The notes: generated from the letters alone by a model not told the origin. A stretch of 64,000 nt of DNA from Cenococcum geophilum (GCA_050273025.1 CP158635.1:16926001-16990000), one strand, 5' to 3'. Counted from the first letter of the stretch, positions 682 through 63,293 are shown. Program-made: numbers and translations.

Positions 682-3600
682 CCCGCTAGCGCAACTCGCT
701 AAGAAACCCAAATATACAATCTTTGCTGTTACTATAGCTAATATTAAGAAGGCCTTAGCACTAAAGAAGTATACTAACCCTACTACGAAGGTATTAGTAG
801 AGTACTATAACCGCCTAGAAGTATTCTTATAGAAGAAAGCCGATAAGCTACTAAAACACCAATCGTATAACCATAAGATTATACTTAAAGAAGGAAAGCA
901 GCCTAGATTTAGACCCCTATATAGAATATCCTAAAACGAACTCTAAGTGCTATAGAAGTATTTAGACAAGAACCTAAGTAAAGGATTTATTAGAGTAAGC
1001 TCTTTACCTATAGCTATACTAGTAATCTTTATTAAGAAACTTAATAGTAGTCTGCGCTTTTATATAGACTACTAAGCTCTTAACGCCGTTACCGTTAAGA
1101 ACTAATACCTAATCCTATTAATATAGGAGACACTAAACTAACTAAGTAAGACTCGCTACTATACAAAGCTTAATATTATCTCTGTATTTAACCGCCCCCG
1201 TATAGTAAAAGGAGATAAATGGCTTATTATATTTCGTACTTAGTATAGATTATTTAAATACTTAATAACGCTATTCGGCCTCGTAAATGCTCTAAGCTTA
1301 TTTTAATATTACGTAAATAATACCCTACGTCCCTACCTAGATATCTTCTGTACTACTTATATTAACAATATCCTAATATATAGTAATAACCTAACCGAAT
1401 ATTAGAAATACGTTTATTTTATTTTATAAGCCCTATATAGAGCTAGTTTATAATTAAATATAGATAAATATAAGTTTTATAAAACGGAAGTTCTATACCT
1501 TAGACTCCTTATTTCTATAAACGGTATATAAATAGACCTAAAGAAAGTTAAAGTAATTATAAACTAGTAAGAACCTAAGGACGTTAAGGATATAAAAGCC
1601 TTTATAGGATTTGCTAATTTCTACTAACGGTTTATTAATAACTTCTCCGCCCTAGTTTTACCCCTTATTACTTTAACCTAAAAGGATAAAGCTTTTATCT
1701 TTAATAAGGAATATAAGAAGGCCTTTGCTTATCTAAAGGTTATATTTACTACTATATCTATACTCTAATACTTTAACCTAAAATAAATAAGTGTTATAGA
1801 AGCCAACTTATCTGATTATGTTACTAAAGGTATTCTATCTTAATATAATAAAGAAGGAATATTATACTCCATAATATACTTCTTAAAATAACTAAGTCCT
1901 GCCGAATATAATTATAAGATCTATAATAAAGAATTGCTAGCTATTATTAGATACTTTAAGCAATAGCAACCCAAACTAGAAGGCGCTGGATTTTTAATTA
2001 AGGTTCTTAGCGACTATAAGAACCTATAGTACTTCACAACCACAAAATAGCTAAGTCATTATTAGGCCCGCTGGTTAGAATATCTATTACCTTTTTAATT
2101 CTTAATTACGTACTGCCTAGGCGTTTAAGGTTAGAAGCCTAATGCTCTAACCTAATACTCGCAAGACGCGCTAGCCCTAAAAGAAGCGCGCTCTTACTAA
2201 AATCAGACCCTGCTTCGCCCTAAACTATTTAACCCTTCTGCTAAAGACCTTACGGTATACGTCCTTAAAATAACTAATTAACTAATTAAATAGATTATAG
2301 TTAATAAATACCTAAATAACGAGTTTATCTAAGAAATGCTTAAGCTAATTTAAGATAGCGTTAGACGCTCTAAAAAGATTTCTTTAAGTAAATGCGAAGT
2401 TTACGGAAACCGCTTATATTACTAGAACCGTCTAGTTATCCCTAATTATAATAAGCTTAAGCTTAAGCTCCTTAAACACATATATAATCTACCTATTACT
2501 AGCTACCTAGGCCAAGAAAAGACCCTAGAACTACTCTAACGGGAGTATTACTAGCCAAATATGCATAATATAACATAAAGGTATATCTTTAGCTACTATA
2601 CCTACTAACGAGCTAAAGCCTTATATAAGACGTATAATGGTCTTTTAAAGCCGCTGCCTATTCCGGACCAAAGATAAAAGGATATCTTAATTAACTTTAT
2701 TATTAACCTCCCTAAAAGTAGAGGCTATATAAACATTATAATAGTTATAGACCAACTATCTAAAATAAGATACTTAATTGCCTATCCTAATATATTAACG
2801 CCTACCGTTGCCCAACTATTCCTAAATTATATATAGAAACTCTACAGACTCCCTAAAACAATTATCTCTAATAAAGATAGCTAGTTAATTTTAGTATTCT
2901 AAAAAGAACTAACTACCTAACTTCGTATTAAAGCACTGTTATCTACTATATACTACCTAAAAACGGATAATTAAACGGAATGCGTAAATGCTATAATAGA
3001 ATAGTATATTCGGATATACACGTTATATCTATAAGATAACTAGATTAACTGGCTTACATTTACCAAGTTTACTATAAATAATTCCGTCTTAGAAATAATA
3101 AAAGTCTCCCTGTTTCTGGCTAATTATAGCTAGTACCTATAAATAGGTTTTAAACCCTTTAGTAATATTCCTTACCCCGCTTATTACGCCTTATAGGTTA
3201 TAAAAGTAAATAAATTTATAGAAAAGATAGAGGAACTATAATAGTTCCTTACTAATAAGATAATATAGGCTTAATCTATTTATAAATCCGCAGCGAATAA
3301 GAAACGAACCCTAGCACCAGCCTACTAAATTAGTAATTTCGTCTGGCTAAATATAAGAAATTTAAACATAAAACAACCTATTAAGAAACTTAATTAGAAG
3401 AATGCTAGCCCTTATAAGGTTAAAAAGGTTATCTTTCCTTATGCCTACTAACTAAAGCTCCCTAATACGGTTAAAATCCACCCCATATTCTATACGTTAG
3501 TCCTCCACCCTACTACCCCTATATTAAACGCCCTGCCTAAATAAATATAGGACCCTCCCCTACTAGTTAAGGTAAATAGTAAGGATAAGTACTTTATTAA

Positions 3601-19199: not shown

Positions 19200-19977
19200 T
19201 ATAATTATAATATATATTAACTTCTTCTCCATATTTTAAGAATAGGACAGTATAGCTTTACTAAGTAAAAGAATTATAGTTGCTAGCTAATTATAATGGT
19301 TAGATATAAAGGATCTAATAGGAGGTATTAAAAATAATAAAGGTTATTAAATTAAAGATGGGAATGCTATACCTCTAATAGATAACTTAGAGATTGTTAT
19401 ACCTAAGCCCAACCCACTTGACCATACAAACTACCAAAAAGGTAGCAGCAGTGTCTCGCGACTGGACGGGCTGCCGGTTAGAATGCCTTATAAGCTCTCC
19501 AGCCTATATCGCCGTATGGGTAGCGCAAGGTCTGACAGAGATATAAAATATCTTTAAGGACGAAAATAAAGAGGGGGATAGTATTACGGACCTTGTATTA
19601 GCAGTAGTATAACTATTAAAAAGATATATATGCGGGTTAGTTAAAATAGTATAGGAGGCGCTAGAACCAATTAAGCTATAGAATAAAAGGTAGCTAAGTT
19701 ATATAGCTAATTACGTTATAAGTTTAAAACGTAGGAACGTAATTTACTAATATACTAATGTATATAGGATATTTCTTAGCGTAGTATTATATATTCAAAG
19801 GACTATAGTCCCTACCTAGATAGTTTTCTTCTTTATAGTAAATCTTAGAATATAATTAGAGTTAATCTATTAGGTAACCTACTCTACTAATTATATTTAC
19901 GTTATTGACTTAATCTATACCTATATATCTAGCCTATTAATAGGTTTACTATAGTATTTCCTATAAGGCTTTATATA
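19200..19977 (+). mobile_element. 3' end and LTR (19582 to ~19977) of a diverged Gypsy-B relative
   Basis: PPT AAAGAGGGGGATAG then TATTACGGAC; the distal half matches Gypsy-B LTR (GGACTATAGTCCCTACCTAGATAG...). Left boundary approximate. Confidence 0.65.
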
Positions 19978-40920: not shown

Positions 40921-42702
40921 CCTATATACGTATTAATTAAGCAACTAAGTCAATAATATATACCCTTTCTTCCCGTTTTCCTACCTTTTTTTCTTATATA
41001 ACGTCTTAACCTCCTTATATAGTTTATATATATAGCTTAATAATATCTATCTTACTATATATTATCGTTGCTTATACTCACTCTATAACACTACGTTACA
41101 TTAACTACCTATACTACTATTAATATATAGAATAAACCTATAACGGCCGCCGGTATTATATTCGCACTTTAAAAATAATTAGTAAGGATATAGAAGTCTT
41201 TTATAGACGCCCTTAAATAGAACTAAGCTACTTTAAATTAATAATAAGCTAAATAAGAAGCATAATACTAGCAATTAATTAAGGACCTCTAAGAAGAAGT
41301 CCGCGCCCTTAAAATATCCACGCTAGGACCTTAAGACTAAACGCTATCTCTAGAGATAAACACGCGGAACGTAAGCCCTAAACCTATAATAGCCACTTAC
41401 CTTAAGCCGACTACTATACTAAAATAATCTAAATAACTACTAAATCCCCTAGTATTTACTAGTAAATAATAAAAGCTCTAATTATTTCTAAGCTAGCTTA
41501 AAAATAAGCTAACTAGTAATGCTAACTATTACCTAACTAAAGCTAATCGACTCTATTACGCCCTAAGTTAACTAGGAGGAGATATAGCTAACCTTATTAA
41601 ACCTCTTTAGCTAAACTTAATATAAAGCCTAGTTATACTTCTTAAAGCTATATATAGTAACCTAAACTACTAAGCTACTTCTTAAAGAAAGATAAACTAT
41701 ATAACTTAAGAAACGAAAAGTTTCCTAGTATACTTCTCTAAATTTAACTATTACGCAAAGGAAATAGGCTAGAACAACTCTATACTAATTAATAGCCTTA
41801 TTAAATCCCTAAGCCCTAAACTAAAAACCTCTCTAATAGGCGTAGACCTACTAAGAGCCCTTAATGCCTATATAAACGTTATTAATAAACGATATAATAA
41901 TATACTACGCCTAACACCGAAGCCCACTCCTTAATACAATACGGCAACCCTATAAACGTCTACTAAGTTATCGTCTTAGCTTAAGCACCCTAATGCTATA
42001 GATATTAACACTAGGACCCTAGGGTACGCCCTACTAGGGTCTTTTAAATAAGAATAACGCATTAAGCTAGGTCTCTACTTTAAATATAAAAGTAGCTCTT
42101 ACCTCTCCAATTACTACTCCGCCCCTATACCTAAACACAATTTATAAACGGCTAACACTAGCAGCCGTTTACCGTATCGATCTTCTAGTTACCGTCCCTA
42201 ATCTCTACCTAGTTCTAGCCCTGCATCTAATAAGCACTATTTATAAGGATAAAGCTATAACTAACGTCCTATAAAAACCCTATCCTAATTACCTCTAAAA
42301 GGAAGGTCTTAAAGCTAAGTCGCTCTTTAGGACGGCTCTGCTATAGGATTTTATTAAACGTATTTAACGTTATAAACTCTAACTCTTAGAACCGTAGTAT
42401 AACTATTAACTACTATCTTTAGTAAAATAGTTAATAGGCTAATATTTAAATCCTAATTAATATAGGAGCTAGCGGTATAGGATTTATTAACAAAATCTTT
42501 ATATAAGATAATGGTTTTATTCTAACCCCCCTTAACTAGCATATTAACGTATTTAGATTTAATAGTAAACGTACCATCTTAGGCCGTATTACCCACGTAG
42601 TATTCCTAAAACTCTAATACCTAAGCTACGAAGAATTAATTAAACCTTTTATTACCACCCTAGGTTACTTAGTAATCCTTAAACCCTAGATAAAGCTATA
42701 TA

Positions 42703-43724
42703 GTAGTAGTAGTAACTCTTTAATTAACGTCTAATACGGATCCTATCTAGGCCCACGCAGACTACTCCGTCATAGGGGGAAAACTTATAGTTTATATGAA
42801 GAAAACCCTGCAGTTAGGGGAAGGAAAAACCCTATAAGCCACCTCAGTCGGATAAAAAACCCCAAATTGCCATATTTGCACGTAGTGCGGCCCTATAGGC
42901 CTACAGCTACATCCTCCTCCTTAGATGTTTTGAACTCCTTAAAAACCACTGCTTCCTTCTCTAGCTTATCCAAAGCTAGGGTTCACTACGTCCTAGCTAG
43001 GCCTTGCTAATCAATTGCCGTACGCTTATAGTTATATCCCGTATCTTAACCACCCCCTATATACTATCTCTTATTAACCATTATTAATACGCCTTACCTT
43101 CCCCCCTCTAAGGCCTATTAAAGGCGTAAGGGGGATTTATCCGTTCTACCATCCTAATACTAAAAGACGAAAGCGGGATGTGTGTGTGTATATATTTAGG
43201 TATCTTTTATACCTAAGCCCTAGTCACTAGGCCCTCTCTAAGGGCACCACTCTATTAAGAGGAGATAAGGAAAACCGTATGGGGTTATCTAGCTGCCTTT
43301 TAGTAGTATTACGGTAGTACGGCGAGTGACCACATGCTCCGCGGGCGATCGCCCTAGGGGTTAGGAGGGGCCGTATATTTGCTCGTTCGTTCGTTCGCGC
43401 TTATCTGTTCGTTAATATAAGGTCATTAATACTTTCTATTGGGGTTTTTTGAGGATATTATCGAAAACTGCTCATCTATGTTGGATTGTATAGGTGCCCT
43501 AGATAGAACAGTGTAGTAGTTATCGTATTGTAGAGGGCCAACAGTAGTAGTTTTCAAGATCTCACTATCCGAAAAATTTTCACCACCACCCTCGACGCCC
43601 ATAACCACCACTAGGTCCTGTCCGCACGCTATACAACGTCTCTGCGTTGGCTCTGGATCTGAACTTCAAAGACTAGGTTTGTAGCCGTCACCACGTACAG
43701 GTGCAGAGTCCGATTTCGACGGCC
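42703..43724 (-). mobile_element. Non-autonomous non-LTR retroposon (SINE/SIDE-like) with ribozyme head and LINE-derived tail
   Basis: 14-bp TSD GATAAAGCTATATA (42689-42702, 43725-43738); (ACT)n tail; 3' ~250 bp similar to the LINE fragment at 17279; no long ORF. Confidence 0.88.
43640..43724 (-). ncRNA. HDV-like self-cleaving ribozyme (predicted)
   Basis: Minus strand: P1 GGCCGUC/GACGGCU with G1-U wobble; P2 CUCUGC/GCAGAG; P3 ACC/GGU; L3 UGUACGU; P1.1 GU/AC; P4; J4/2 G-CCAAC. G1 abuts the TSD. Confidence 0.85.
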
Positions 43725-46700
43725 GATAAAGCTATATAAGGTAACTATTAATTAGAACAACCTTAAGCTTCTATTTACCGCCTCCTGTTATAAGCAGAAG
43801 TGCCTTATAACTTACTACTTAGACCTAAAACTAAAATCTAAAAAATCCACCAGGATCTACTAGTCTAAAATTTCTATAACTGTCCACCTTATACCTAAGG
43901 ATTCCACCAGATTCCACCAACTTAGGAATTCCACTAAATTTTACCAACGTAAGATTTCCACTAATGCTTACTTTACGCCTAAGAATTCCACCGATATCCA
44001 CTAAGGATCCGAAAACTCTACTAAATTCTATAAGTTATTACTAAGTACTATACTACCCTAAGCTAAGCAAAAGCTTAAGCTCTATATATAAAAATATTAA
44101 AAGGACTAGTATCCTACTATAAAAAGGATTCTTAAAGAACTTAAACCTAAATCTAGTACTAACTCCGTACTTAATACTAAACCTAAACCTAAATAAGAAA
44201 CTATAGATAATTCAAGCAAGCTTAGTACCCTAGATATCTATATAATTAGAGCTACCCCACTAGCGCAACTTGCTAAAAAACCCAAGTATACAATCTTTGC
44301 TGTTATAATAGCCGATATTAAAAAGGCCTTAGTACTAAAGAAGTATATTAACCCTACTATAAAGGTACTAATAGAGTATTATTATCGCCTAGATGCGTTC
44401 TTATAAAAGGAAGCTAATAAGCTACTAGAATACCAACTATATAACCATAAGATTATACTTAAAGAAGAAAAGTAGCCCGGATTTAGACCCTTATATAAAA
44501 TGTTCTAAAATAAACTCTAAGTACTATAAAAGTATTTAAACAAGAACCTAAGTAAAGGATTTATTAAAGTAAGCTCGTTATCTATAGCTATATTAGTAAT
44601 CTTTATTAAGAAACCTAGCGGCGGTCTATACTTCTATATAGACTACTAAGCTCTTAACGCTATTACCGTTAAGAACTAATATCTAATCCTATTAATATAA
44701 GAGATGCTAAACTGACTAAGTAAGGCTCGTTACTACACAAAGCTTAATATTATCTCTATATTTAACCGTCTCTATATTATAAAAGGGGATAAATAGCTTA
44801 CTGCATTTCATACCTAATATAGACTATTTAAGTACTTAGTAATACCCTTCGGCCTTATAAACGCTCTAAGCTCGTTTTAATATTATATAAATAATACCCT
44901 ACGCCCCTACCTAGATATCTTCTATACTGCTTATATTAATAACATCCTAATATATAGTAATAACCTAACCAAATATTAGAAATACGTTAACTTTATTTTA
45001 TAAACCCTACACGGAGCTAGTCTATAATTAGATATAAATAAATATAAGTTCTATAAAACGGAAGTCCTATACCTTAGACTCCTTATTTCTATAAATAGTA
45101 TATAAATAGACTTAAAGAAAGTTAAAGTAATTATAAACTAGCAAAAACCTGAGAATGTTAAGGATGTAAGAGCCTTTATAGGATTTACTAATTTCTACTA
45201 ACGGTTTATTAATAACTTCTCCGCCCTAGTTTCTCCCCTTATAGCTTTAACCTAAAAGGATAAAGTCTTTATCTTTAATAAGGAATATAAGAAGGCCTTT
45301 ACCTATTTAAAGGTTATATTTACTACTGCGCCTATACTCTAATACTTTAACCTAAACTAAATAAGTGTTATAAAAGCCGACTTATCTAACTACGTTACTA
45401 AAGGCATTCTATCTCAATATAATAAGGATAGAGTATTATACCCTATAGCATACTTTTTAAAATGACTAAGCCTAGCTAAATATAACTACAAGATCTACGA
45501 TAAGGAATTATTAGCTATTATTAGATATTTTAAACAATAGTAACCTAAACTAGAAGGCACTAGATTTCTAATTAAGGTCCTTAGCAACTATAAGAACCTA
45601 TAATACTTTACAACTACAAAATAGCTAAGTTATTATTAGGCCCGCTAGTTAGAATATCTATTTTATTTCTAATTCTTAATTACATACCACCTAAGCGTCT
45701 AAGGTTAGAAGCCTAATACCTTAACCTAACACTTATAAGACGCGCTAGCCCTAAAAGAAGCGCGCTCTTACTAAAATTAGACCCTACTTCGCCCTAAACT
45801 ATTTAACCCTACTAAAGATCTTACGGTATACGTCCTTAAAATAACTAATTAATTAATTAAACAGATTATAGTTAACGAATGCCTAAATAATAAGTTTATT
45901 TAAGAGACGCTTAAGCTAATATAAGATGGCATTAGATGCTTTAAAAAGATTTCTTTAAGTAAATATAAAGCCTGTGGAAACTGCTTATATTACTAAAACC
46001 GTCTAGTTATCCCTAATTATAATAAGCTTAAGCTTAAACTCCTTAAACATATATATAATCTACCTATCGCCAGCCACCTAGGCTAAGAAAAGACCCTAGA
46101 ACTACTCTAATAGGAGTATTATTAGCCGAATATATATAATATAATATAAAGGTATATCTCTAGCTGCTATACCTACTAATAAGCTAAAGTCTCGCATAAG
46201 ATATATAACGGTCTTTTAAAACCGCTACCTGTTCTAAACTAAAGATAAAAGGATATTTTAATTAACTTTATTATTAACCTTCTTAAAAGTAAAGGCTGTA
46301 TAAATATTATAGTAGTTATAAACCAACTATCTAAAATAAGACATTTAATCGCCTGCCCTAATATATTAACGCCTAGCGTTACCTAACTATTCCTAGATTA
46401 CGTATAGAAACTCTATAAACTCCCTAAAACAATTATCTCTAATAAAGGCAGCTAGTTTATCTTAGCATTCTAGAAAAAAACTTACTACTTAACTTTATAT
46501 TAAAGCACTACTATCTACTATATATTACCTAAAAACGGATAGTTAAACGGAATGTGTAAATATTATAATAGAATAGTATATTCGGATATATATATTGTAT
46601 TTATAGGATAACTAGATTAACTAGCTCGTATTTACTAAGTTTACTATAAATAATTCCGTTTTAGAAACTATAAAAGTCTCCCTATTCCTAGCTAATTACG

Positions 46701-49700
46701 GCTAGCACCTATAAATAGGTTTTAAACCCTTTAGTAATATTCCTTACCCCGCTTATTACGCCTTATAAGTTATAAAAGTAAATAAATTTATAGAGAAAAT
46801 AGAGGAACTATAACAGTTTCTTACTAATAAGATAATATAGGCTTAATCTATTTATAAAGCCGTAGTAAATAAGAAATAAACCCTAGTACTAGTTTATTAA
46901 ATTAGTAATTTTGTCTAACTAGATATAAGAAATCTAAATATAAAATAACCTACTAAGAAACTTAATTAGAAGAACGCTGGCCCTTATAAGGTTAAAAAGG
47001 TTATCTTTCCTTATACCTACTAACTAAAGCTTTCTAATACGGTTAAAATCCACCCCATATTCTATACGTCAGTCCTCTACCCTATTACCCCTATATTAGA
47101 CGCCCTGCCTAAATAAATATAAGACTGTAACGGAATTCCCTAGAAGGTACATATTAGATAAGATAGAAGGAGGTCTTATCTATATTTTAGAAGGAGGTCT
47201 TATCTATGTTCCAGAAGGAGGTCTTACCTATATTCTATCTACGTCCTAAAAGATATAGTCAGACAGATAAGGGGCAAAGGGTTTTACTAGCGTCTTAGAA
47301 AGATCATATAGGGAGCTAGTTCTCCTCTAGAGAAGAACCAGCAATTAGTCTCTAAATAGAAGTAGTTAAAAGCATTTGTCCTTTAATATATAAAACTTAT
47401 TCTACCTTTAACTTACCTTCTATTTACCTTTAACTTACCTTCTATTTACCTTTAACTTACCTTCTACTTACCGGTAATACTGTCGATTAGATAATTATAT
47501 ATTCCGGTTAAGCTAGCCTCTTATAATTCTAATCGCTTACAATCCGTTAGGAACGTACGGCTATTAATTAACAATAATAAACTATACTCCTATACCCCAT
47601 AAAGCAACGCCCTTACTATAAAAGGCTCAAAAAGTCTCCCCAGAGGAGCGCATTTTCTTTTCCTATAAAGAAGCCACGGCTGGTCCGTTTAACCTTATAA
47701 GACCTTTAGAAACGATTACCGCTAGGGAGTTATTGGAGCGGTCGCTATATAAGACCCTATAAAAAACAAAGGAGTTAGAGATATGATTAAGATAAGTATA
47801 TTAAGACTACCAAGAACAATTGTAAGGACAATTAGGGGAAGTATAAACACCCCAGACACAAAGCGGACTTAAAGGGGTAACGCCATACTATGCTATAACG
47901 TTAGAAAAACCTAAATTCCGTATAAAGGAACCTAATAAGTACTATAGTGATAGTCTTCGGAACTATAATTGTTTTATCCGACAATATAAAACCAAGTTTT
48001 AGCTAGATCTAAAACGTTACTCTAATGAGTATAATTAGACACTAATTACTTCTACCTTCCTGCGTAGCACCGTCGAGAGTTTATAGACACGCTATAAGAA
48101 GAAACTTACTATACCCCTTAAATTTAGCGAACTTAGGACCTAGTTGGTCGATTAGGTCTAAGACCCTACTAATTAAGGGATAGACTATAACTAGCGATAC
48201 CACAACGCCAAACAGCGGGATAGTTAGACTGTGGTCCAGTTTATAAACTACTTAGAAGAACTAGAAGACAATATACCCTACTTAGATCTATAGGATAACG
48301 CTATACAACTTTACCAGCTACTCGCTAAGCTATAACCTAAGATTTGACAGGCTATATAAGAGAAGGGCAAAATTCCTACCTCTTAAGAAAAGCTTATCTC
48401 TAAAGCTACTTAGATTAAGAGTGCTAAAAAAGACCATTTAGGCAAGTAAAAGGAACGAGACGCTAACAATAAAGAGCGTAGGACTAGACCTAGCTTTAAT
48501 AATAGGGGTAGATTCCGACCTAACCGCTCTACGGAAGAATAACGCAAGTAGGCCTCGCAGCCTTAGAGCAACGCTAGTTAACCCTAAAATAACAATAGGC
48601 AGAAACCTAATCCGCAGAAGGGGAACCAGGAGATACGTACCTATTATAACTACGGCAAGAAGGGCTATATAAGCCGCTTCTACCGGCAGAAGAAGTAAGA
48701 GTCGGCCTAATTGGGAAAAGAGACAGCTTAGTAGATCTTTACTCCCTTACACTAGGCTAGTAAGAGAAGGAGGGAGTAAACTGCCGTATAGTTATTCCTA
48801 TCTCTATTTAAGTTAATAATAAATAGGTAACGCGAGACTGCCTTATAGACAGCGGCGCGAGTATGGGGTTTATTTCTCAATTACTGGTAAAAGAATTAGA
48901 TTTGGACCTTAGCGGCTCGTAGGTGCGCACCGTTTAAAGCATCGGAGGCTACTAGATTCCATACTATGGGGAATAGGCTTTTTCCATGGCCAGCTAGGAC
49001 CGCGATAGTCTATGGGACACGCAGGAGATACGCTTCTGTGCCGCAGAAATCAAGGGGTACAACCTTGTTTTGGGATACCTATGGCTTTACTAAGTCAATC
49101 CGGACATTAATTGGCCTTCAGCCTTATATTAACATTAAAAGTCTTAACCGCGCATTATAGTCGAAGATTAAGAGACTTTCTTAAACCATATGCAAGAAGA
49201 AGGGTGGGTATATGCCATATATACCACTCTTGACACTAAGAACGGGGACACGGGATATTTATTTTCGGATATCTAGCTATATATAGTTAAGGAACTAGAG
49301 ATTCTATAGGAATATACGGACTTAGAGGATATTTCTAGTAAAGAGGCTGCATAAACCTTACCCGACCCTATATTAGTTAAGCATAAGATAGATATAGGGG
49401 ATAAATAACCTCCTTTTAGACCGCTGTATAACCTATTAGAAAATGAGCTGGCGGTACTACATTAATATATAGTGGACAATCTTTAGAGAGGATAGATTCG
49501 GCCCTCTATAAGCCTAGTAGGGGCGCCAATTATATTTATACCTAAGAAGGACGGGACCCTTTACCTCTATATTAACTATTAGGCGCTAAACAAGATTACT
49601 ATAAAGAATCGCTACCTATTACCCTTAATAGGGAAGCTTATTAATAGGCTATTGGGCGCAAAGATATTTATAAAATTAGATCTAAAAGATATATACCATC

Positions 49701-50439
49701 AAATCCAGATTAAAGCCGGCGATAAGTAGAAAACGGCGTTCTAAATATAGTACGGCCACTTTAAGTACCTAGTAATGCCATTTAGGCTTACTAACGCACT
49801 AGTGATATTTCAGGCCTATATTAATAAGGCATTATCGGGCCTGTTAGACACAATATATATAGTCTACCTTAATAACATTATAGTCTACTCTAATAACTAC
49901 GAAGTATATACGTACTACGTGCGAATAGTACTAGAAAGACTACGGGAATATAAGCTCTATATAAACCTAAAAAAGTGCACGTTCTATACTACTAGCATTA
50001 ATTTTTTAGGCTTTATCGTCAGCGTTAACGGAATCGTCAGGAAAACAAGAGAGTGGTAGGGGCTAGCTAGGGGCTGGCCCAGGGCTAGCCTGGGGTCATT
50101 TTAGCTGGATCCGCTGATCTGCTTATATACACTTTTTTACACTAGCCCCAGGCCCCATTAGCAATATTAGCAACATTAGCAACATTAGCAATATTAGCAA
50201 TATTAGTAATATTAATAATATTAATTTTAAAAATTATAATATATCTTTTTACTATAATATTTTCTATAACTGCAATATTTATATAGGAATAATAATGGGT
50301 TTTAAATTTTAAATTTTAGTTATTAAGCAATTAATTAAAATAAGTAGGAAGCCTCTTGCAGAGGCTCCAAATCGTTAATTAGCGATATTCCTGACGATCT
50401 ACCGGCCGTGTACTGATTTCCTAACTAGGCCTAGCACCC

Positions 50440-50635
50440 GCCTACCTATCTGCCTGCCTACCTACCTACTTACTTGCCTGCCTACCTGCCTACCTACCTA
50501 CCTACCTACCTACCTGCCTGCCTGCCTGCCTACCTACCTACCTACCTACCTACCTACCTACCTGCCTGCCTATACCTATCTATGCCTACCTATATATGCC
50601 TACCTGTCTATACCTACCGTCTATATCTATCTATA
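50440..50635. repeat. (CCTA/CCTG)n microsatellite
   Basis: Direct inspection. Confidence 0.9.
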
Positions 50636-50742
50636 GTATCTAATTCAATTTGATTTGGTAGCGGGCTAATATCGAGGCTCTGGTTCGATTCGATCGATCG
50701 ATTAAGTCGCTCGTGGTGTTGCTGACTGGTTGTTCGAACGAT

Positions 50743-51256
50743 CGTCGTCTAGTTCTGGCGACGGTCGTCTGGTCCTGATGACGGTCGTCTGGTTCTGATG
50801 ACGGTCGTCTAGTTCTAATGACGGTCGTCTAGTTCTGGCGACGGTCGTCTAGTTCTGGCGACGGTCGTCTGGTTCTGGCGACGGTCGTCTAGTCCTGATG
50901 ACGGTCGTCCTGATGACGGTCGTCTAGTTCTGGCGACGGTCGTCTAGTTCTGGCGACGGTCGTCTAATTCTGGCGACGGTCGTCTGGTTCTGGCGACGGT
51001 CGTCTGGTTCTGGCGACGGTCGTCTGGTCCTAATGACGGTCGTCCTGATGACGGTCGTCTAGTTCTGGCGACGGTCGTCTGGTTCTGGCGACGGTCGTCT
51101 AGTTCTGGCGACGGTCGTCTGGTCCTGACGACGGTTGTCTGGTCCTGACGACGGTTGTCTGGTCCTGACGACGGTCGTCTGGTCCTGATGACGGTCGTCC
51201 TGATGACAGTCATCTAGTTCTAGCGACGGTCGTCTGGTTCTAGCCACAGTCATCTA
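50743..51256. repeat. 20-bp tandem array (GACGGTCGTCTRGTTCTGGC), ~25 units with occasional 15-bp variants
   Basis: Head-to-tail units without unique spacers. Confidence 0.92.
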
Positions 51257-53429
51257 CTAGCTGCCGTTGTAGTGCCTCCCTAGGTAGAGAGGATGGAAGG
51301 AAGGGTAAAAAATAAGTGGTATTTAGGTGTATAAGGGGTATATAAAGACACGTAGAGGCTGCTAGGAATATAGTGGGGACCTAATAGCACTGTAGGCCGC
51401 TGTTAGAACGATTAAGATAACCAGGAAAATTAAAGTCCTACTAGGAGCCTGCTAGGAAGCCTGCTAGGAGCCCGCTAGGAAGCCTTTAGGATTTTAATAC
51501 CCTAATAGCAATAAACGTAATAATAGTAATAATGTTTATTTTATAGCTATAAGTTAGCATAATGCTAGCGTATAGCTCTAGGGCCTAGCTAATATGGTAA
51601 AAAGCTGGCGTAGAGCGCTAGGGGGCTAGCTAATATGGCGGAAAGCTAGCGTAGAGCTTTAGGGGGTCAGCTAATATGGCGGAGAGCTAGCCCTAGGCCC
51701 CAAAAACACTTTTAGCGAAACTAAATTTCATACGCCACCCCCCGTTTTCCTGACGCATATCAATAGAGAAAAGTCAGGTAGACGCTATTAGGAAATAGCC
51801 CTACCCTATAATATTTAGAGAAGTATAGGTTTTCTTAGGCACGGCGAACTTCTACTAAATATTCATTATTTACTACTTACAAGTAATACTCCCAATTACC
51901 GATCTACTAAAAGGATCTAAGAATGGCAGGAAGTTAGGACCCTTTATATTTAGGGAAGCTGCTAAGTAGGCTATAGACCAGTTAAAGGATTTATTTATAT
52001 CGGCGCCTATCCTAATATACTTCTACTAGGAGCTATATATATACCTTAAAACGGATATATCCGGCTTTGCCCTAGGGGCAATTATATCTTAATTAAAAGA
52101 CGGAAAATGGCATCCTATAGCGTTTTAGTTAAGGAAAATAACCCCTATAGAGCAGCGTTATATAACGCACAACTAGGAGCTGCTCGCGATAATCGCAGTA
52201 ATAAAGTATTAGCGACATTATTGTATGGGAAGCAATTATCCCATTAAAGTCCTTACAGACTATAACAACCTAGAATACTTTATAACTACGAAGGTGTTAA
52301 GCGGTCGATAAGCTAGGTGGGCAGAGGCACTATTATAGTACGATTTTAAGATTACGTACCGCCCAGGAAAGATAAATCCTGCTAATAGGTTATTAAGACG
52401 TCTAGATTACGAGATAGGGAGGATCTAGGACAGCATAGGGGAAATAATCCCTATATTGCAAAATTTGCTTAGGAAGAAAGAAGACTCTTTCCCTAGAACT
52501 ATAGAATTTCGCGGCAGGGCAGAGGTCCCGGCGATATAGCTACGAAGTAATATAATTATAGAGCCGCAGGATATAGTTATAGACTAGGTTATAGACCAAG
52601 CAGATATTACAAAGTTAGCGTACCCCAGAATTAGCGAGAATTCTACGGGATATGCTAGAGGTGTCGCGGCACCTTTAACTTAACGGCGTATTAGCTACGA
52701 GTTCTCGGATCTAAGGGGGATAGGCGAGATGCCTATCTATAGCGTGGCACACTGCATAACGGTAGGAGAATCTGCTAGCACTAATAGTTTAAAACGTCTC
52801 GTGCTACGCCTTAAGTCTATAATAGCGGCAGGCGAAATAGAAGCAAGCGATCTATATAAAACCTTTCTAGATCTTCTTCTTTAAGCTTAATAAAGGGACG
52901 CCTTCGCCTCTAGGGAGAGGTAGAAAGATATAGTGGAGACTAACTTGGCTAGAGTTACTAAGAAGCTATAGCAGCAAGACTAAAAGGGTTTATTGCGCTT
53001 TAAGGGTGCTATATATATCCTAAAGGACTAAGCAATTTAAGACGAAATTCTAAAGGTCTTCTATAACGACCCTTTTAGGGGTTACTATAGTGCCAATAGA
53101 ACCCTTAAGGCCGTTTAAAGAAAATAATTTTAGGACGGAATGTCTAAAGAGGTTAAGGACTATATATTAAGGTATAATACGTGCCAAAGGATATATATAT
53201 CTAGGCATCGCCTATACGGCGAGTTATTAGTGCTTCCTATTCTATAGGGACCCATATTAGAATTAACAATAGATTTTATTACAGGCTTACCCCCTACTAA
53301 GATAAGAACTAGAGAAGTTGCTAACGCTATCCTAGTAATTGTTAATAGGTATATAAAGTTTTCAGGATACTTTGCTGTTATAATAACGATCACAGCAGTA
53401 GAACTGGCAGACCTGTTTTTAGAACGGTG

Positions 53430-53644: not shown

Positions 53645-56600
53645 CGGTGGCTCTCGTTTGGTATGCTAAGGGGAATTGTGTCTGACAGAGGCACCGTATT
53701 TAATAGTACATTTTGGTCTTCATTCTGTCTCTTATTGAAAATACGGCAAAGGATAAGCACTACCTTTTACCTGCAAATAGATAGGCAAATAGAGCATCTA
53801 AATGCGTTATTGGAACACTACCTCCGCTGCTATGTCAATTATTAACAGAATGATTAGACATTGTAGTTAGCTTTAGCGCAGCACGTATATAACACAAGTA
53901 TCTATAGCAGTATAAAAATAACCCCTTATAAAGCATTGTTTGGGGTAAAAGTAAATAACCCCTAGAATGTTAAGGACATCGTTCCTAAAAAAGAGGCACT
54001 AGCGGCGTCCGAAAGAATTAAGCAAATGAGAATTCGCAGAAAGGAACTCGAAAAGCACTTACTAGACGCCCAGGCTGTGTAAAAAAGGTACTATGACAAA
54101 AAATATATGCCGAAAGAATTCGAGATAGGAGATGAAGTCTTACTATCTATAAAAAATATCCGAATAAAACGTATTAAGAAGAAGCTGGATCACTAGTAGC
54201 TTAGACCCTTTAAGATAGTTAAGAAAACCAAAGAAAACTAAGCCTATAAATTAGAATTACCGAAATCTTATCTAATACATCCCATATTTTATATTTCCTT
54301 ACTAAAGCTATACTAGAGAAGAGATAGTACGGAACCACCCCTACCTAGCGAAATTAATAGGGAACTGGAATGGAATGTAGAAGACATTCTAGACTAAAGA
54401 TAGCGCTAGAAAAAGCGCGAATTTTTAGTTCATTAGGAAGGATACTCTTAGGCGCATAATAGTTAGAAATCTAAGGAGTACCTTTGGCCAGGATATAATA
54501 CCGTAATTAAAACCTTCCTAAGAACTAAAGGTAAAGACTTAGAAATGGTTCTAGATATGCCATAGGTAAAATAACAGGAAAGACCCTATAAATTAAAACT
54601 ATAGAATTAAGTATAGGTATTAAGAACGGAAACGTTTTGCTATTATAATAGGGATCCTAGAATTCTGTAAGAGGAAGCCTATAGGGATCTATAGGAGAAC
54701 TACTAAGGATACTATTTAAAGAAGACGCTATATAAGAAGGAGTAGTAGTACTATAAGAAGTGGCCTTAGGGATTTAGCAAGATCCCCTAGGGATAAAAGG
54801 AGAGTATCTGGCCTAGCACTAGAGATATATAGTAGAGTTAATAGTATAAAGAGGAGTAAAAGGACAGCCTATAAAGAATTAGAAATTTTAAGGAATTATA
54901 AGGCACCTATAGGAACACTACCCGTTTATTATATATGGGGATTATAGTAGTATACTGCATTTATATAGATTGTTACTAAAGCTTAGAATAAAGGCATCCC
55001 TAAAGTATAAAGTTAATTCCTAATAATAGGGCATTCTAGAGGCACCTAAGAGGTACTATATAAAGCTATTTTATAAGAAGAAAAGAGCTAGGTAATAACT
55101 TAAACACTAGCAGCAGTAATAGGAGCCTCCTCTTCTATCTTAATGTTATTATCGACGGTATTATTAGCTCCTCTATCCCTAGAAGCATTAGCACTTCTAC
55201 TAACATTCTTCTTAGAACGACGGGTACTAGAAGGACTAGCACAGGCGGGAGACTGGCGAGGAGAACGTTCATCTTAACCTTCGTTACTATCCTTAGTATC
55301 CCTAGGTTCCAAATCGGCGTCTAAGTAGAGATTAGAAAGATATTGGCTAAAGAAGTTAGCACAGTTCCCAAGCAAGTTACTAGAGAAACTTACCTAGCTA
55401 AAATAGCCCGCGTAAGAGTACGAATGTTATTATTAATAAGGACAAGCTATTTGTATATACGCTCCTAGACACTATATATCTAAGAACGTTGCGTCTTTAT
55501 AGTAGTGGAAACCCTTATAGAATTAAAGAGTCTATAAGCGAGGGAAGACACCTTTTATCCCCGCCTGTCACTATTAGGATATTAGCAGAAATCTTAGATG
55601 GCGCGTTAGAGCCTATAAGTCTTATATGCATAGATAGCGGGGATCTAGTATAATTAGCGAAATTTAGAATAGGATAGAATGGGAAATACTGGGATATAGG
55701 TCTTTCTCCTACTATAATAATAGGAGCACTTAGATTTATTTTTGCTGGAGTAAGGCATTTTATAGACGTGGGAAAGATCCTACGTAAGAGTATAAATATA
55801 GCGACAACAGCATTTTAGGGAAACTGCTATAGAAGTAACAGACGCTATCTAGGGCGTTACTAGGAGATTAATAATACTACCGCCGGTCTAGGGACCACGA
55901 GCTATTATAAGAGAATACTCTAAGAAGTTAGCATTATTATAAGAAGATAAGGTAGGGATCCTATTACTTATAAACGTATTATAAGAAGAGAATAAAGTAG
56001 CTATAAAAGAACAGCTAGAGATATAGAAGCTAAAAGCGAAGATATAGAGGAAACAGTCTGCTAAAAGATAAGACGAATAGTGTTATTAATAAAAAGACGC
56101 GTAAGAGGCAACAGCTTATAAACTAGAAGAAAATTAAAATAAAGACGTTATTATTAGAATCCATTTTAGGTAAATAGGGATAGTAGCTCGTAGATATATT
56201 GCATAGGATAACCTCTAGATTAACTTATAACAAACTCTTATAATAAGAAAGGTAAATCCTATCCAATTTTCATTATTATTATTTTAGTTCTATTACAAAG
56301 GCATTATAGGGAACTATAGTAGGAAAAGAGCAGAGGAACTAAGGATAAAGTAAGATTCTACGCTAGTGAAGAACTAGCTATAAGCCGTATTATAAAGTAC
56401 CTTTCTACTAAGAATTTCCCTAGTAGTTTTAGCCGGAACTTTATAAAAGCTTAGTAGAGGCGAAGTCTTGGAGGACTAAGACCCTTAAAGGGGAGGCAAT
56501 TATAACAGAATTCCCTAGAAGGTATATATCAGATAAGACAAAAGGAGGTCTTATCTATGTTCTAAAAGGAGGTCTTATCTATATTCCAAAAGGAGGTCTC

Positions 56601-56881
56601 ACCTATATTCCATCTACGTCCTAAAAGACACGGTTAGATAGATAAGGGGTAAAGGGTTTTACTAGCGTCTTAGAAAGATTATATAGGGAGCTAGTTCTCC
56701 TCTAGAGAAGAACTAGCAATTAGTCTCTAAATAGAAGTAGTTAGAAGCATTTATCCTTCAATACGTAAAACTTATTCTACCTTTAACTTACCTTCTATTT
56801 ACCTTCAACTTACCTTCTACTTACTGGTAACACTGTCGATTAGATAATTATACGTTCCGGTTAGGCTGGCCTCTTACAAAT

Positions 56882-61479: not shown

Positions 61480-63293
61480 ATGGCAGGAATATTTGAGCAA
61501 CCCCGAAATGCTGGCACACTCTGTATGTATCCTCCGCCCAAACAGGGTACATAGGCTAATAGAGCATCACAGTCCTCGGCGGCCAGAAAGTGAGTGGACA
61601 AGACATCCGCGACCAAAATGTCCTCGCAACACAAGCAATCGCCAATGTGATAAAATCCTCCTTTGGGCCCTCGGGTCTAGACAAAATGATGGTCGACGAT
61701 ATCGGCGATGTCACAGTCACCAACGACGGCGCCACCATCCTCAGTCTGCTGGATATTGAGCACCCTGCAGGCAAGATACTAGTTGATCTCGCGCAACAAC
61801 AAGACAAGGAAGTCGGAGATGGCACAACCTCTGTTGTGATAATAGCGGCGGAGCTCCTGAGGAGGGCGAACGAGCTTATGAAGAACAAAATACATCCTAC
61901 TACGATTATTACGGGATACAGGCTGGCGTTACGAGAGGCGGTGAAATATATGAACGAGAATATTAGCACGAAGGTAGAGAACCTGGGACGGGAGAGCCTG
62001 ATAAGTATTGCCAAGACATCCATGTCTAGCAAAATTATAGGATCGGACTCGGATTTCTTCGCCAACATGGTTGTGGACGCCATGCAGTCTGTCAAGTCTG
62101 TCAACAACAAGAACGAAGTCAGATACCCTGTCAAGGCTGTGAATATCCTTAAAGCACATGGAAAGAGCGCCACGGAATCAATATTAGTCAAGGGCTATGC
62201 ACTGAATTGCACCGTCGCCTCACAAGCCATGACTACGCGGGTTCCAGACGCTAAAATTGCTTGTTTAGACATAAATTTGCAGAAAGAACGGATGAAGTTG
62301 GGTGTGCAGATTACAATCGACGATCCGCAACAGCTCGAGAAAATCCGCGAACGGGAAGCCGGTATTGTAGTCGAGCGTGTGGAGATGGTCCTCAAAGCAG
62401 GTGCCAACGCTGTCTTTACAACCAAAGGAATTGACGAGCTATGCCTAAAGCTTTTTGTCGAGAAAGGTGCTATGGCCGTACGGAGGTGCAAGAAGGAGGA
62501 TTTGCGCAGGATAGCAAAAGCGACAGGTGCCACACTTGTCTCCTCGCTCTCCGATCTCAATGGCGACGAGAAGTTTGAGCCGTCATTGCTAGGTCAAGCG
62601 GAAGAGGTGGTACAGGAGCGTATCTCGGACGATGAATGTATTCTCGTTAAAGGCACGAAAGTACACTCTTCTGCCTCTATTATCTTGCGGGGTGCCAACG
62701 ACTACTCCCTTGACGAGATGGAACGCTCCGTCCATGACTCTCTCTCCGCCGTGAAACGAACCCTTGAAAGTGGACGCATAGTGCCCGGTGGTGGTGCCGT
62801 TGAAACTGCGCTACACATCTACCTAGAAGAGTGGGCAACCTCTGTAGTAAGTTGACTCCCTGTAATCCCTTAAATGCCAGGCTCTAAATCAAACAAGGGT
62901 TCTCGCGAACAACTCGCCATCGGCGCTTTCGCCCAATCCCTCCTATCCATCCCGAAAACGCTCGCCGTCAACGCCGCCAAGGACTCGTCCGAGCTAGTTG
63001 CGCAGCTACGCTCCCGACATGCACTCAGCCAGCGCACAGCCGACGATCCAGCCGCAACAACAGACCAAAAAGCGCTTGCCCGCTCTAAGAACTACAAGAA
63101 CTACGGACTAGACCTCGTGAACGGGAAGGTCGTTGACGAGATCAAGGCGGGCGTACTAGAGCCATCTATGAGCAAGGTGAAGCAGCTGAAGAGCGCGGTT
63201 GAGGCATGTGTCGCTATTATGCGAATTGATACACTGATTAAGCTGGATCCGGAGGAGAGGGGAAATCCAGATGACGATGGGCATGGGCATTAG
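61480..63293 (+). CDS. CCT1: T-complex protein 1 subunit alpha (CCT chaperonin); exons 61480-61522, 61573-62846, 62898-63293
   Basis: [47 protein letters not shown] motifs; canonical introns join the ORF-track pieces. Confidence 0.96.

Follow-up and report, generated by a model that had tools for sequence, protein, structure and literature searches.

A predicted HDV-like ribozyme at the exact 5′ end of a non-coding retroposon from the fungus Cenococcum geophilum

Ruminski et al. 2011 reportedly found ribozymes of the hepatitis delta virus (HDV) type at the 5′ ends of the RTE, Baggins and R2 long interspersed nuclear elements (LINEs). For R2, RTE and L1Tc this position, which a first-pass annotation of the DNA analysed here had called established, is indeed so described (PMC6765202, PMC3185411). 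The arrangement also occurs in Baggins and in derivatives lacking an open reading frame (ORF), namely SIDEs, NARTc, RIME and SIDER (PMC6765202, PMC3185411, PMC3414825). An HDV-like ribozyme, L1TcRz (Pr77), occupies nt 1-77 of the trypanosomatid NARTc, RIME and SIDER (PMC3185411), and the Drosophila SIDEs are internally deleted R2 and R2/R1 elements (PMC3414825; PMC6765202). The link between ribozymes and retrotransposons was summarised in 2026 as holding “across plant and metazoan genomes” (PMC13725137). For fungi, 230 “variant” representatives in 26 species and 11 canonical HDV ribozymes were reported (Li & Breaker 2017, PMC5640933). In a full-text search of the literature, no paper was met in which an HDV-like ribozyme is connected with a retroposon of fungi; examples from fungi or from retrotransposons may be contained in Webb 2009, Webb & Luptak 2011 and Ruminski 2011. 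An HDV-type 5′ head seems not to have been described previously for fungal retroelements. Here we report such a fold in a 64,000-nt stretch of Cenococcum geophilum DNA (GCA_050273025.1, CP158635.1:16926001-16990000; this whole stretch is called the window, and coordinates count from its first letter), where it lies at the start of a non-coding retroposon.

The minus strand from 43724 to 43640, read directly from the sequence, forms a complete nested double pseudoknot of the HDV type, 85 nt in length (Table 1; for RNA position p the window coordinate is 43725-p). P1, P2, P3, P1.1 and P4 follow in the canonical order, and the joints from P3 to P1 and from P2 to P3 are both of zero length. HDV-class ribozymes have a G-U wobble at the base of P1 and a purine at +1 and do not require upstream sequence; at the predicted cleavage site the wobble is G43724-U43683. 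In the class, J4/2 provides the catalytic cytosine, followed by N-A-A just ahead of the P2 3′ strand, and in the window copy a C and then N-A-A were found, with one extra C before that strand. The double pseudoknot had been drawn on this strand in the first-pass annotation, and all of its coordinates and pairings were correct: the 7-bp P1 with G1-U, the 6-bp P2, P3 as ACC/GGU, the 7-nt L3 and the J4/2 of C-N-A-A-N were each found again on re-reading. P1.1 of the class consists of two base pairs, usually G-C rich. The annotation had called P1.1 (GU/AC) a compensatory change; the pairing is possible, but “compensatory” holds only as a comparison with other ribozymes. P3, L3 and P1.1 were invariant among the listed family copies described below, but the pattern used to find them fixed all three.

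This fold is the first 85 nt of a 1022-nt insert that begins with G43724. The predicted cleavage site, 43725/43724, had been placed exactly at a duplication boundary, and there it is, with the same 14-bp direct repeat, TATATAGCTTTATC, on both sides of the insert. The 12-nt core of this duplication is present 3 times in the window, where 0.09 occurrences would be expected. The insert contains no ORF longer than 61 aa, and no second copy of the element was found within the 64-kb window.

The frequency of such folds was assessed with a permissive descriptor of our own (P1 7 bp, J1/2 0-30 nt, P2 6 bp, P3 3 bp, L3 7-8 nt, P1.1 2 bp, C-N-A-A before the P2 3′ strand, P4 optional). Two matches were obtained in the window, the ribozyme at 43724 and a site at 19813 (+). 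First-order Markov simulation of the window composition (simulated sequence, not true shuffles) gave 30 sites in 32 Mb, that is 0.12 expected chance matches per window (~1e-6 per position, about one per Mb), and for this reason the fold alone would be unremarkable in 64 kb. Simulation of the element composition gave 1 site in 7.68 Mb, and the chance of a match starting at one given nucleotide is ~1e-6 to 1e-7. The ribozyme starts at an independently defined retroposon terminus, and therefore the coincidence is not one of chance. The descriptor matched 100 sites in 0.69 Mb of real fungal loci, every one of them in a member of the retroposon family. The second window match (19813-19896, plus strand) has a J1/2 of 30 nt and one additional base between P2 and P3; situated in a dispersed, AT-rich repeat, it probably arose by chance.

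To collect further copies, public metagenome contigs were scanned with a 23-nt P3-L3-P3′-P1′-P1.1 pattern, transitions being allowed in P1′. At least 122 loci were obtained, of which at least 121 are family copies besides that of the window; one candidate, L104, was rejected, since it shared nothing beyond the search stretch. In essentially all listed copies the similarity started at the G of GGCCGTCG, and the upstream sequence differed in every copy. In a 118-sequence alignment of the listed matches, the six columns upstream of G1 had no majority base and conservation from G1 onward was at least 90%. The start was GGCCGTCG in 91 of 119 listed copies, the others being transition variants or offset by 1 nt, and nucleotide -1 among 120 listed was A in 55, T in 35, G in 16 and C in 14. 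More than 100 listed copies share the G1 start rather than beginning at unrelated positions.

Target-site duplications were sought in the 52 listed copies with at least 1150 nt of downstream sequence. Exact direct repeats of 11-19 nt, at 936-1032 nt, were present in 37, and a repeat with at most 2 mismatches in 5; the 10 copies without a repeat were interrupted or degraded (e.g. L058, rejected as a 3.9-kb element, which is actually a 1-kb copy holding a nested insert of ~2.9 kb). Duplication length peaked at 14-15 nt (29 of 38 listed copies), and in about 30 of the 38 the duplication opened with T-A and continued A/T-rich. The 3′ ends consisted of a common conserved block (~50 nt) followed by (TAC)n, with (TAT)n, (TCT)n or (TAA)n as tail variants and lengths differing between copies; the 3′ 140 nt folded no better than shuffles. 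Downstream of the ribozyme no long ORF was found in the listed copies (maximum 246 aa, unrelated), nor one starting with ATG in a 39-copy consensus.

Part of the window was present in 20 of 24 listed public runs, from 16 studies. Two DNA runs from two organisms (X1 and X6), one metatranscriptome and one raw stranded RNA run were examined, reads being compared at 80% likeness or more; because of this threshold they come from many copies and not only from the window locus. Similarity ended exactly behind 43724 in 29 contigs of X1 and 17 contigs of X6, and the contig sequence beyond was discordant (agreement 0.44-0.45). Empty-site joints, running directly from 42681-42684 to 43725-43726 and skipping 1040-1043 nt, were seen in both DNA runs; the contigs concerned, which have a diverged target copy at the joint, are paralogues of the flanking repeat without the insert. 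In both RNA runs the depth was zero in the flanks 42516-42698 and 43736-43950, RNA being confined to bins 42699-43735 with a depth inside the element of up to about 5000; among the rows listed there was no loose end behind 43724. First mates of the stranded run lay 10- to 100-fold more often on the plus strand, which in the usual stranded chemistry means minus-strand RNA. The RNA has the boundaries of the element and the strand of the ribozyme.

Duplications of variable length, empty sites, a variable simple-repeat tail and the lack of coding capacity are the marks of target-primed reverse transcription of a non-autonomous element. With more than 100 copies of this kind, the claim of a non-coding retroposon with an HDV-like fold at its exact 5′ end was supported. 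A quite different origin, independent of any LINE, would make the element a deleted autonomous one with its own protein, or a DNA transposon or miniature inverted-repeat element. For it speaks a consensus frame that runs without a stop for 95 codons, beginning at the 5′ end and crossing the ribozyme (consensus nt 3-290, window ~43722-43435, minus strand). This frame has no ATG near its start, reaches a stop at about nt 290 and is probably open by chance; ribozyme-linked translation has been described for some LINEs. The ORF limit of 246 aa, the absence of terminal inverted repeats from the element, the 11-19-bp duplications and the variable simple-repeat 3′ tail also stand against this origin, which we consider hardly credible.

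The best explanation, in our judgement a probable one, is a family of non-coding retroposons headed by an HDV-like ribozyme. The 85 nt are the 5′ module of an abundant ~1.0-kb non-coding retroposon family in a filamentous fungus affected by repeat-induced point mutation (RIP). The fold, the boundaries, the family, its transcription and the strand are seen in the data; for cleavage, mobilisation in trans and the source of the promoter we infer the following course. The fold would cleave the transcript co-transcriptionally, immediately 5′ of G1, and whatever promoter or read-through lay upstream, the template for retrotransposition would start at nucleotide 1 of the element. Such cleavage would explain full-length copies with unrelated sequence directly upstream. 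The conserved ~50-nt 3′ block and (UAC)n would presumably be recognised by a LINE reverse transcriptase acting in trans, with priming on AT-rich targets starting with TA, from a nick ending in T-A, to give duplications of 13-15 bp.

The window copy was 89.3% identical to the 39-copy consensus (1013 nt), with 105 substitutions. C>T or G>A accounted for 70 of these, 39 of the 70 in a CpA/TpG context. The ribozyme part departed from the consensus only at 43680, 43674 and 43668; the change at 43674 breaks a P4 pair and that at 43668 lies in the P4 loop. T43674, which the annotation had ascribed to RIP, is a derived change of that type, since the consensus has G on the RNA strand in a TpG/CpA context. 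Other copies read C on the plus strand (loose-end consensus at 43673), in the same RIP direction. In sequence the window copy is intact in the core and weakened in P4, and it is best read as an old RIP-mutated insertion, its P4 and J1.1/4 bearing three G>A or C>T changes.

Several results weigh against a ribozyme-headed family mobilised in this way, and they are set out here with the alternatives they bear on. At the gathering score Rfam gave 0 matches, the best reaching 13.6-13.8 bits against 37 and 44. In a relaxed search of 4227 families the window copy aligned full length to drz-agam-1 from 43724 (13.6 bits), its only HDV-type sub-threshold match, and the un-RIPped copy L012 had HDV-F-prausnitzii (13.8 bits) and drz-agam-1 (13.7 bits) as its only matches at E<10 among the same number of families. 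Both L012 alignments were full length and started at G1, the HDV-F-prausnitzii alignment ending at the last P2 base. The HDV-type models of Rfam are narrow, lineage-specific families, and these sub-threshold alignments are support for the HDV class, not for membership of those families. Of the Rfam support that the annotation had looked to, in-register alignments to the class were obtained and the gathering score was not reached. The nested folding energy, too, was not better than that of shuffles (z = +0.52; +0.17 in the un-RIPped copy), a comparison that says nothing about a pseudoknot. Taken separately, its two nested halves gave -17.3 and -15.0 kcal/mol against a nested minimum of -23.2, and P2 and P4 were present in the nested minimum-energy fold of the un-RIPped copy.

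Nor was the covariation that the annotation had looked for seen: none in P1-P3 or P1.1 was informative among the 118 listed sequences. Informative double changes were confined to P4 (35 cells) and one P1 cell (L082, U-A). In P1 and P2, changes that keep a wobble (20 cells) were nearly equalled by changes that break a pair (18 cells), which fits neutral decay after insertion. RIP itself also yields paired G-C to A-U changes, because CpA in one strand of a helix faces TpG in the other, and owing to this mimicry part of the P4 “covariation” is not evidence of selection; in RIP-affected genomes such G-C to A-U “covariation” must be discounted. One copy (L060:1345-847, minus strand) shows RIP-made apparent compensation in P2 and P1.1, its P1.1 being A-U plus U-A.

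Pairing as such was well kept. The 118 listed sequences are related copies in which the search pattern had fixed P3, L3 and P1.1; of their 2984 pair cells 98.3% were paired, against 28-45% with the partners slid. The P1 pair at the cleavage site (9-52) was G-U in 114 of 118 and A-U in 3. The first C of J4/2 was kept in nearly all listed copies (L117 being the exception and three rows degenerate), and the second was T in about 10. At P4 pair 61-85 the counts were GC 39, AU 10, GU 7 and other 15, and at pair 63-81 GC 61, AU 25, GU 22 and other 10. The listed copies had 55 P4 haplotypes, most of which fold as a hairpin despite changes of sequence and length, and the hairpin was retained in four length variants of differing sequence, in otherwise little-mutated copies. 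Copies differed from the overall consensus by 6-18%, much of it not of the RIP type. Non-RIP change was 1.4% in ribozyme nt 1-21 and 74-85, outside the search pattern, against a body median of 7.2%, and only 1 of 88 body windows was as low; in the P2 3′ strand and J4/2 it was 0.2%. Conservation at the subfamily level is better evidence than pair covariation.

If the HDV-like drawing were a coincidence, the 5′ ~85 nt would not cleave and would serve in binding of reverse transcriptase, in second-strand priming or as a promoter. The missing gathering-score match and the lack of covariation in P1-P3 agree with this, as do a P1.1 of G-C plus U-A in place of two G-C pairs and the chance matches given by the descriptor, e.g. 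at 19813 (+). Against it, a start at the given nucleotide has the very low chance calculated above, full-length alignments in register were obtained with two independent covariance models of the HDV class, the P4 hairpin is upheld through substitutions and length changes, and the 5′ end of a retroposon is a known position of this ribozyme class (PMC6765202). We regard a coincidence as very improbable.

RNA ends pose a further difficulty. Of 80 molecule beginnings, 25 were at 43724 and a few at 42719, beside the tail; 505 of 1319 molecules ended at 43712, so that the main pile of ends is at +13 and not at +1. Removal of the outermost 5′ nucleotides during library preparation may account for this pile. 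An internal promoter would give RNA 5′ ends at +1 just as well, and the 85 nt might be a dual promoter/ribozyme module like Pr77/L1TcRz, the ribozyme trimming only a minority of read-through transcripts. Precisely such a double function is known from L1Tc and NARTc (PMC3185411), RNA-seq cannot separate initiation from cleavage at or near +1, and a second highly conserved block implies that other functional signals exist. The strict conservation, on the other hand, maps onto ribozyme helices and junctions and not onto a recognisable promoter motif. A dual module is in our estimate unlikely, while being the most serious of the alternatives. The second block (element nt ~351-400, window 43325-43374, minus strand; column identity 0.96) is the most conserved outside the ribozyme, and bins 43309-43369, at this block, had the highest DNA and RNA depth.

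A partner for the ribozyme-headed family was also missing: no reverse-transcriptase ORF was found in 0.75 Mb of loci. Of 23 ORFs of at least 200 aa in these loci plus the window, 17 were sent to Pfam, six overlapping or antisense frames being left out; the 17 were host genes or had no assignment, and none was a reverse transcriptase. Two matches confined to the 3′ end (L025:3568-3619 and L041:1220-1278) were rejected as partners, the sequence upstream of them being non-coding and RIP-like. The only reverse-transcriptase remnant in the window (RVT_1; 49583-50056, plus strand; E = 2.5e-15) was likewise rejected: it is Ty3-like and not of a LINE, its closest solved structures being Ty3 reverse transcriptase and Gag-Pol, and it belongs to a long terminal repeat element. 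A classical short interspersed nuclear element (SINE), with a head derived from a small RNA and an internal RNA polymerase III promoter, is not what was found. No tRNA-like head was present in five loci, and the un-RIPped full element had no Rfam small-RNA match, only a spurious one to HCV_SLVII. Because of these negatives, the 1-kb length and the T5 runs inside the consensus, an origin from RNA polymerase III transcription is unlikely, in agreement with the annotation. The element may still have an internal promoter for RNA polymerase II, as L1Tc does in Pr77.

Table 1. Coordinates of the ribozyme and retroposon features in the window
Feature	Coordinates	Strand	Details
HDV-like ribozyme, 85 nt	43640..43724	-	predicted cleavage 5′ of G43724; from sequence, descriptor and sub-threshold Rfam alignments
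P1	43724-43718 x 43689-43683	-	5′ strand GGCCGUC x GACGGCU; 6 Watson-Crick pairs plus G1-U
J1/2		-	9 nt
P2	43708-43703 x 43645-43640	-	CUCUGC x GCAGAG; 6 bp
P3	43702-43700 x 43692-43690	-	ACC x GGU; 3 bp; P1 3′ strand directly after P3
L3	enclosed by P3 (43690..43702)	-	UGUACGU; 7 nt
P1.1	G43698-U43697 (L3) x A43682-C43681	-	2 bp, can form (G-C plus U-A)
P4 hairpin	43653..43676	-	43676-43670 x 43660-43653; one A.C mismatch (43674), one bulged U
J4/2	43650-43646	-	C-C-A-A-C; C43650 is the putative catalytic cytosine, RNA position 75
Whole retroposon copy, 1022 nt	42703..43724	-	non-coding, RIP-mutated
3′ tail	42703..42714	-	(TAC)4
Upstream target-site duplication copy	43725..43738	-	14 bp, TATATAGCTTTATC
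Downstream target-site duplication copy	42689..42702	-	14 bp, TATATAGCTTTATC

The retroposon sits in a repeat-rich, RIP-like AT-rich compartment. Large dispersed repeats begin about 530 nt from the insert: 44256-47125 and 682-3553, as well as 47128-47526 and 56503-56879, form pairs that are 86-88% identical. A third exact occurrence of the 12-mer TATAGCTTTATC (42248-42259, minus strand) lies 429 nt downstream of the target duplication of the insert. In the site as it was before the insertion, this 12-mer thus stood at both ends of a 429-nt piece of the flanking repeat; the piece may be an older nested insertion on whose duplication the retroposon landed. Directly after the Ty3-like remnant there are long tandem arrays of a tetranucleotide (CCTA/CCTG-type) and of a 20-nt unit (50412-50596 and 50712-51296). 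A TCP-1/cpn60 chaperonin gene (61563-63290, plus strand) occupies the end of the window, which is of normal GC content. The related metagenome loci contained typical fungal genes (an ARG5,6-type fusion, a polyketide synthase and ribonucleotide reductase).

HDV-like ribozymes define the 5′ ends of LINEs and of their ORF-less parasites in insects, other animals and trypanosomatids, and hundreds of fungal HDV-type ribozymes have been catalogued with no function stated (PMC5640933). A transcribed family with precise ends and at least 121 copies beyond that of the window offers a testable context for 5′ processing under RIP, and also, for biochemistry, a compact natural, putative ribozyme whose P1.1 is G-C/U-A and whose P4 occurs in several natural forms. 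One may go further and suppose a still-transcribed, promoter-independent “ribozyme-headed SINE” class of fungi, in which the catalogued ascomycete HDV ribozymes generally would be such 5′ ends and a LINE whose tail is (TAC)n would, acting in trans, copy their uncapped 5′-OH RNAs. We put this forward tentatively, as a possibility that is on balance doubtful. If true, it would give fungal HDV ribozymes a biological role and define a new class of non-autonomous elements.

Compared with the known systems, the fungal family shares with the RTE, Baggins and R2 LINEs the ribozyme class, its position and the proposed release, for elements lacking a promoter, from read-through transcripts (PMC6765202, PMC13725137). 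Those elements differ in being protein-coding animal LINEs, and a part played by the ribozyme in starting translation makes no evident sense where an ORF is lacking. Like the Drosophila SIDEs, the fungal element is ORF-less, keeps a 5′ HDV-like ribozyme and has a 3′ end presumably meant for the reverse transcriptase of a partner; the 5′ end of SIDEs is made by self-cleavage of a co-transcript, as we infer for the fungal counterpart. SIDEs are, however, site-specific in 28S rDNA and co-transcribed by RNA polymerase I, whereas copies of the fungal family are inserted at numerous AT-rich targets that begin with TA, both beside genes and within repeats.

The fungal ribozymes of Li & Breaker 2017 (PMC5640933) likewise come from filamentous ascomycetes, have many copies with “widely variable gene associations”, and two examples cleave; no transposon context is given there, the stem “transpos” and the word “retrotransposon” being absent. 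Their variants have C-G at the cleavage site, one more nucleotide between P2 and P3 and, where part of P4 would be, a loop-E. The retroposon ribozyme is set apart from them by these described features: it has G-U, its P4 is ordinary, and it agrees with the canonical consensus except for the extra C before the P2 3′ strand. With RF02682 (HDV-F-prausnitzii) and RF01787 (drz-agam-1) it shares the register of P1, P3, L3 (U.UACGU) and J4/2 (GC.AA), and the alignment gives P1.1 of the F. prausnitzii consensus a U-A pair as well. Its 13.7-13.8 bits fall far short of the gathering scores, 44 and 37, and the retroposon ribozyme belongs to neither family.

The trypanosomatid elements NARTc, RIME and SIDER have a ribozyme that cleaves at +1, whereas cleavage of the fungal element is predicted only. 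They also share their 5′ module with an L1Tc/ingi partner, and in them the module is a promoter as well, P1.1 has 1-2 bp and the tail is poly(A), in place of which the fungal family has (TAC)n. In other respects the two groups are alike, being non-coding, dispersed, dependent on a LINE (in the fungus, presumably) and not site-specific, with an HDV-like fold in the first ~80 nt.

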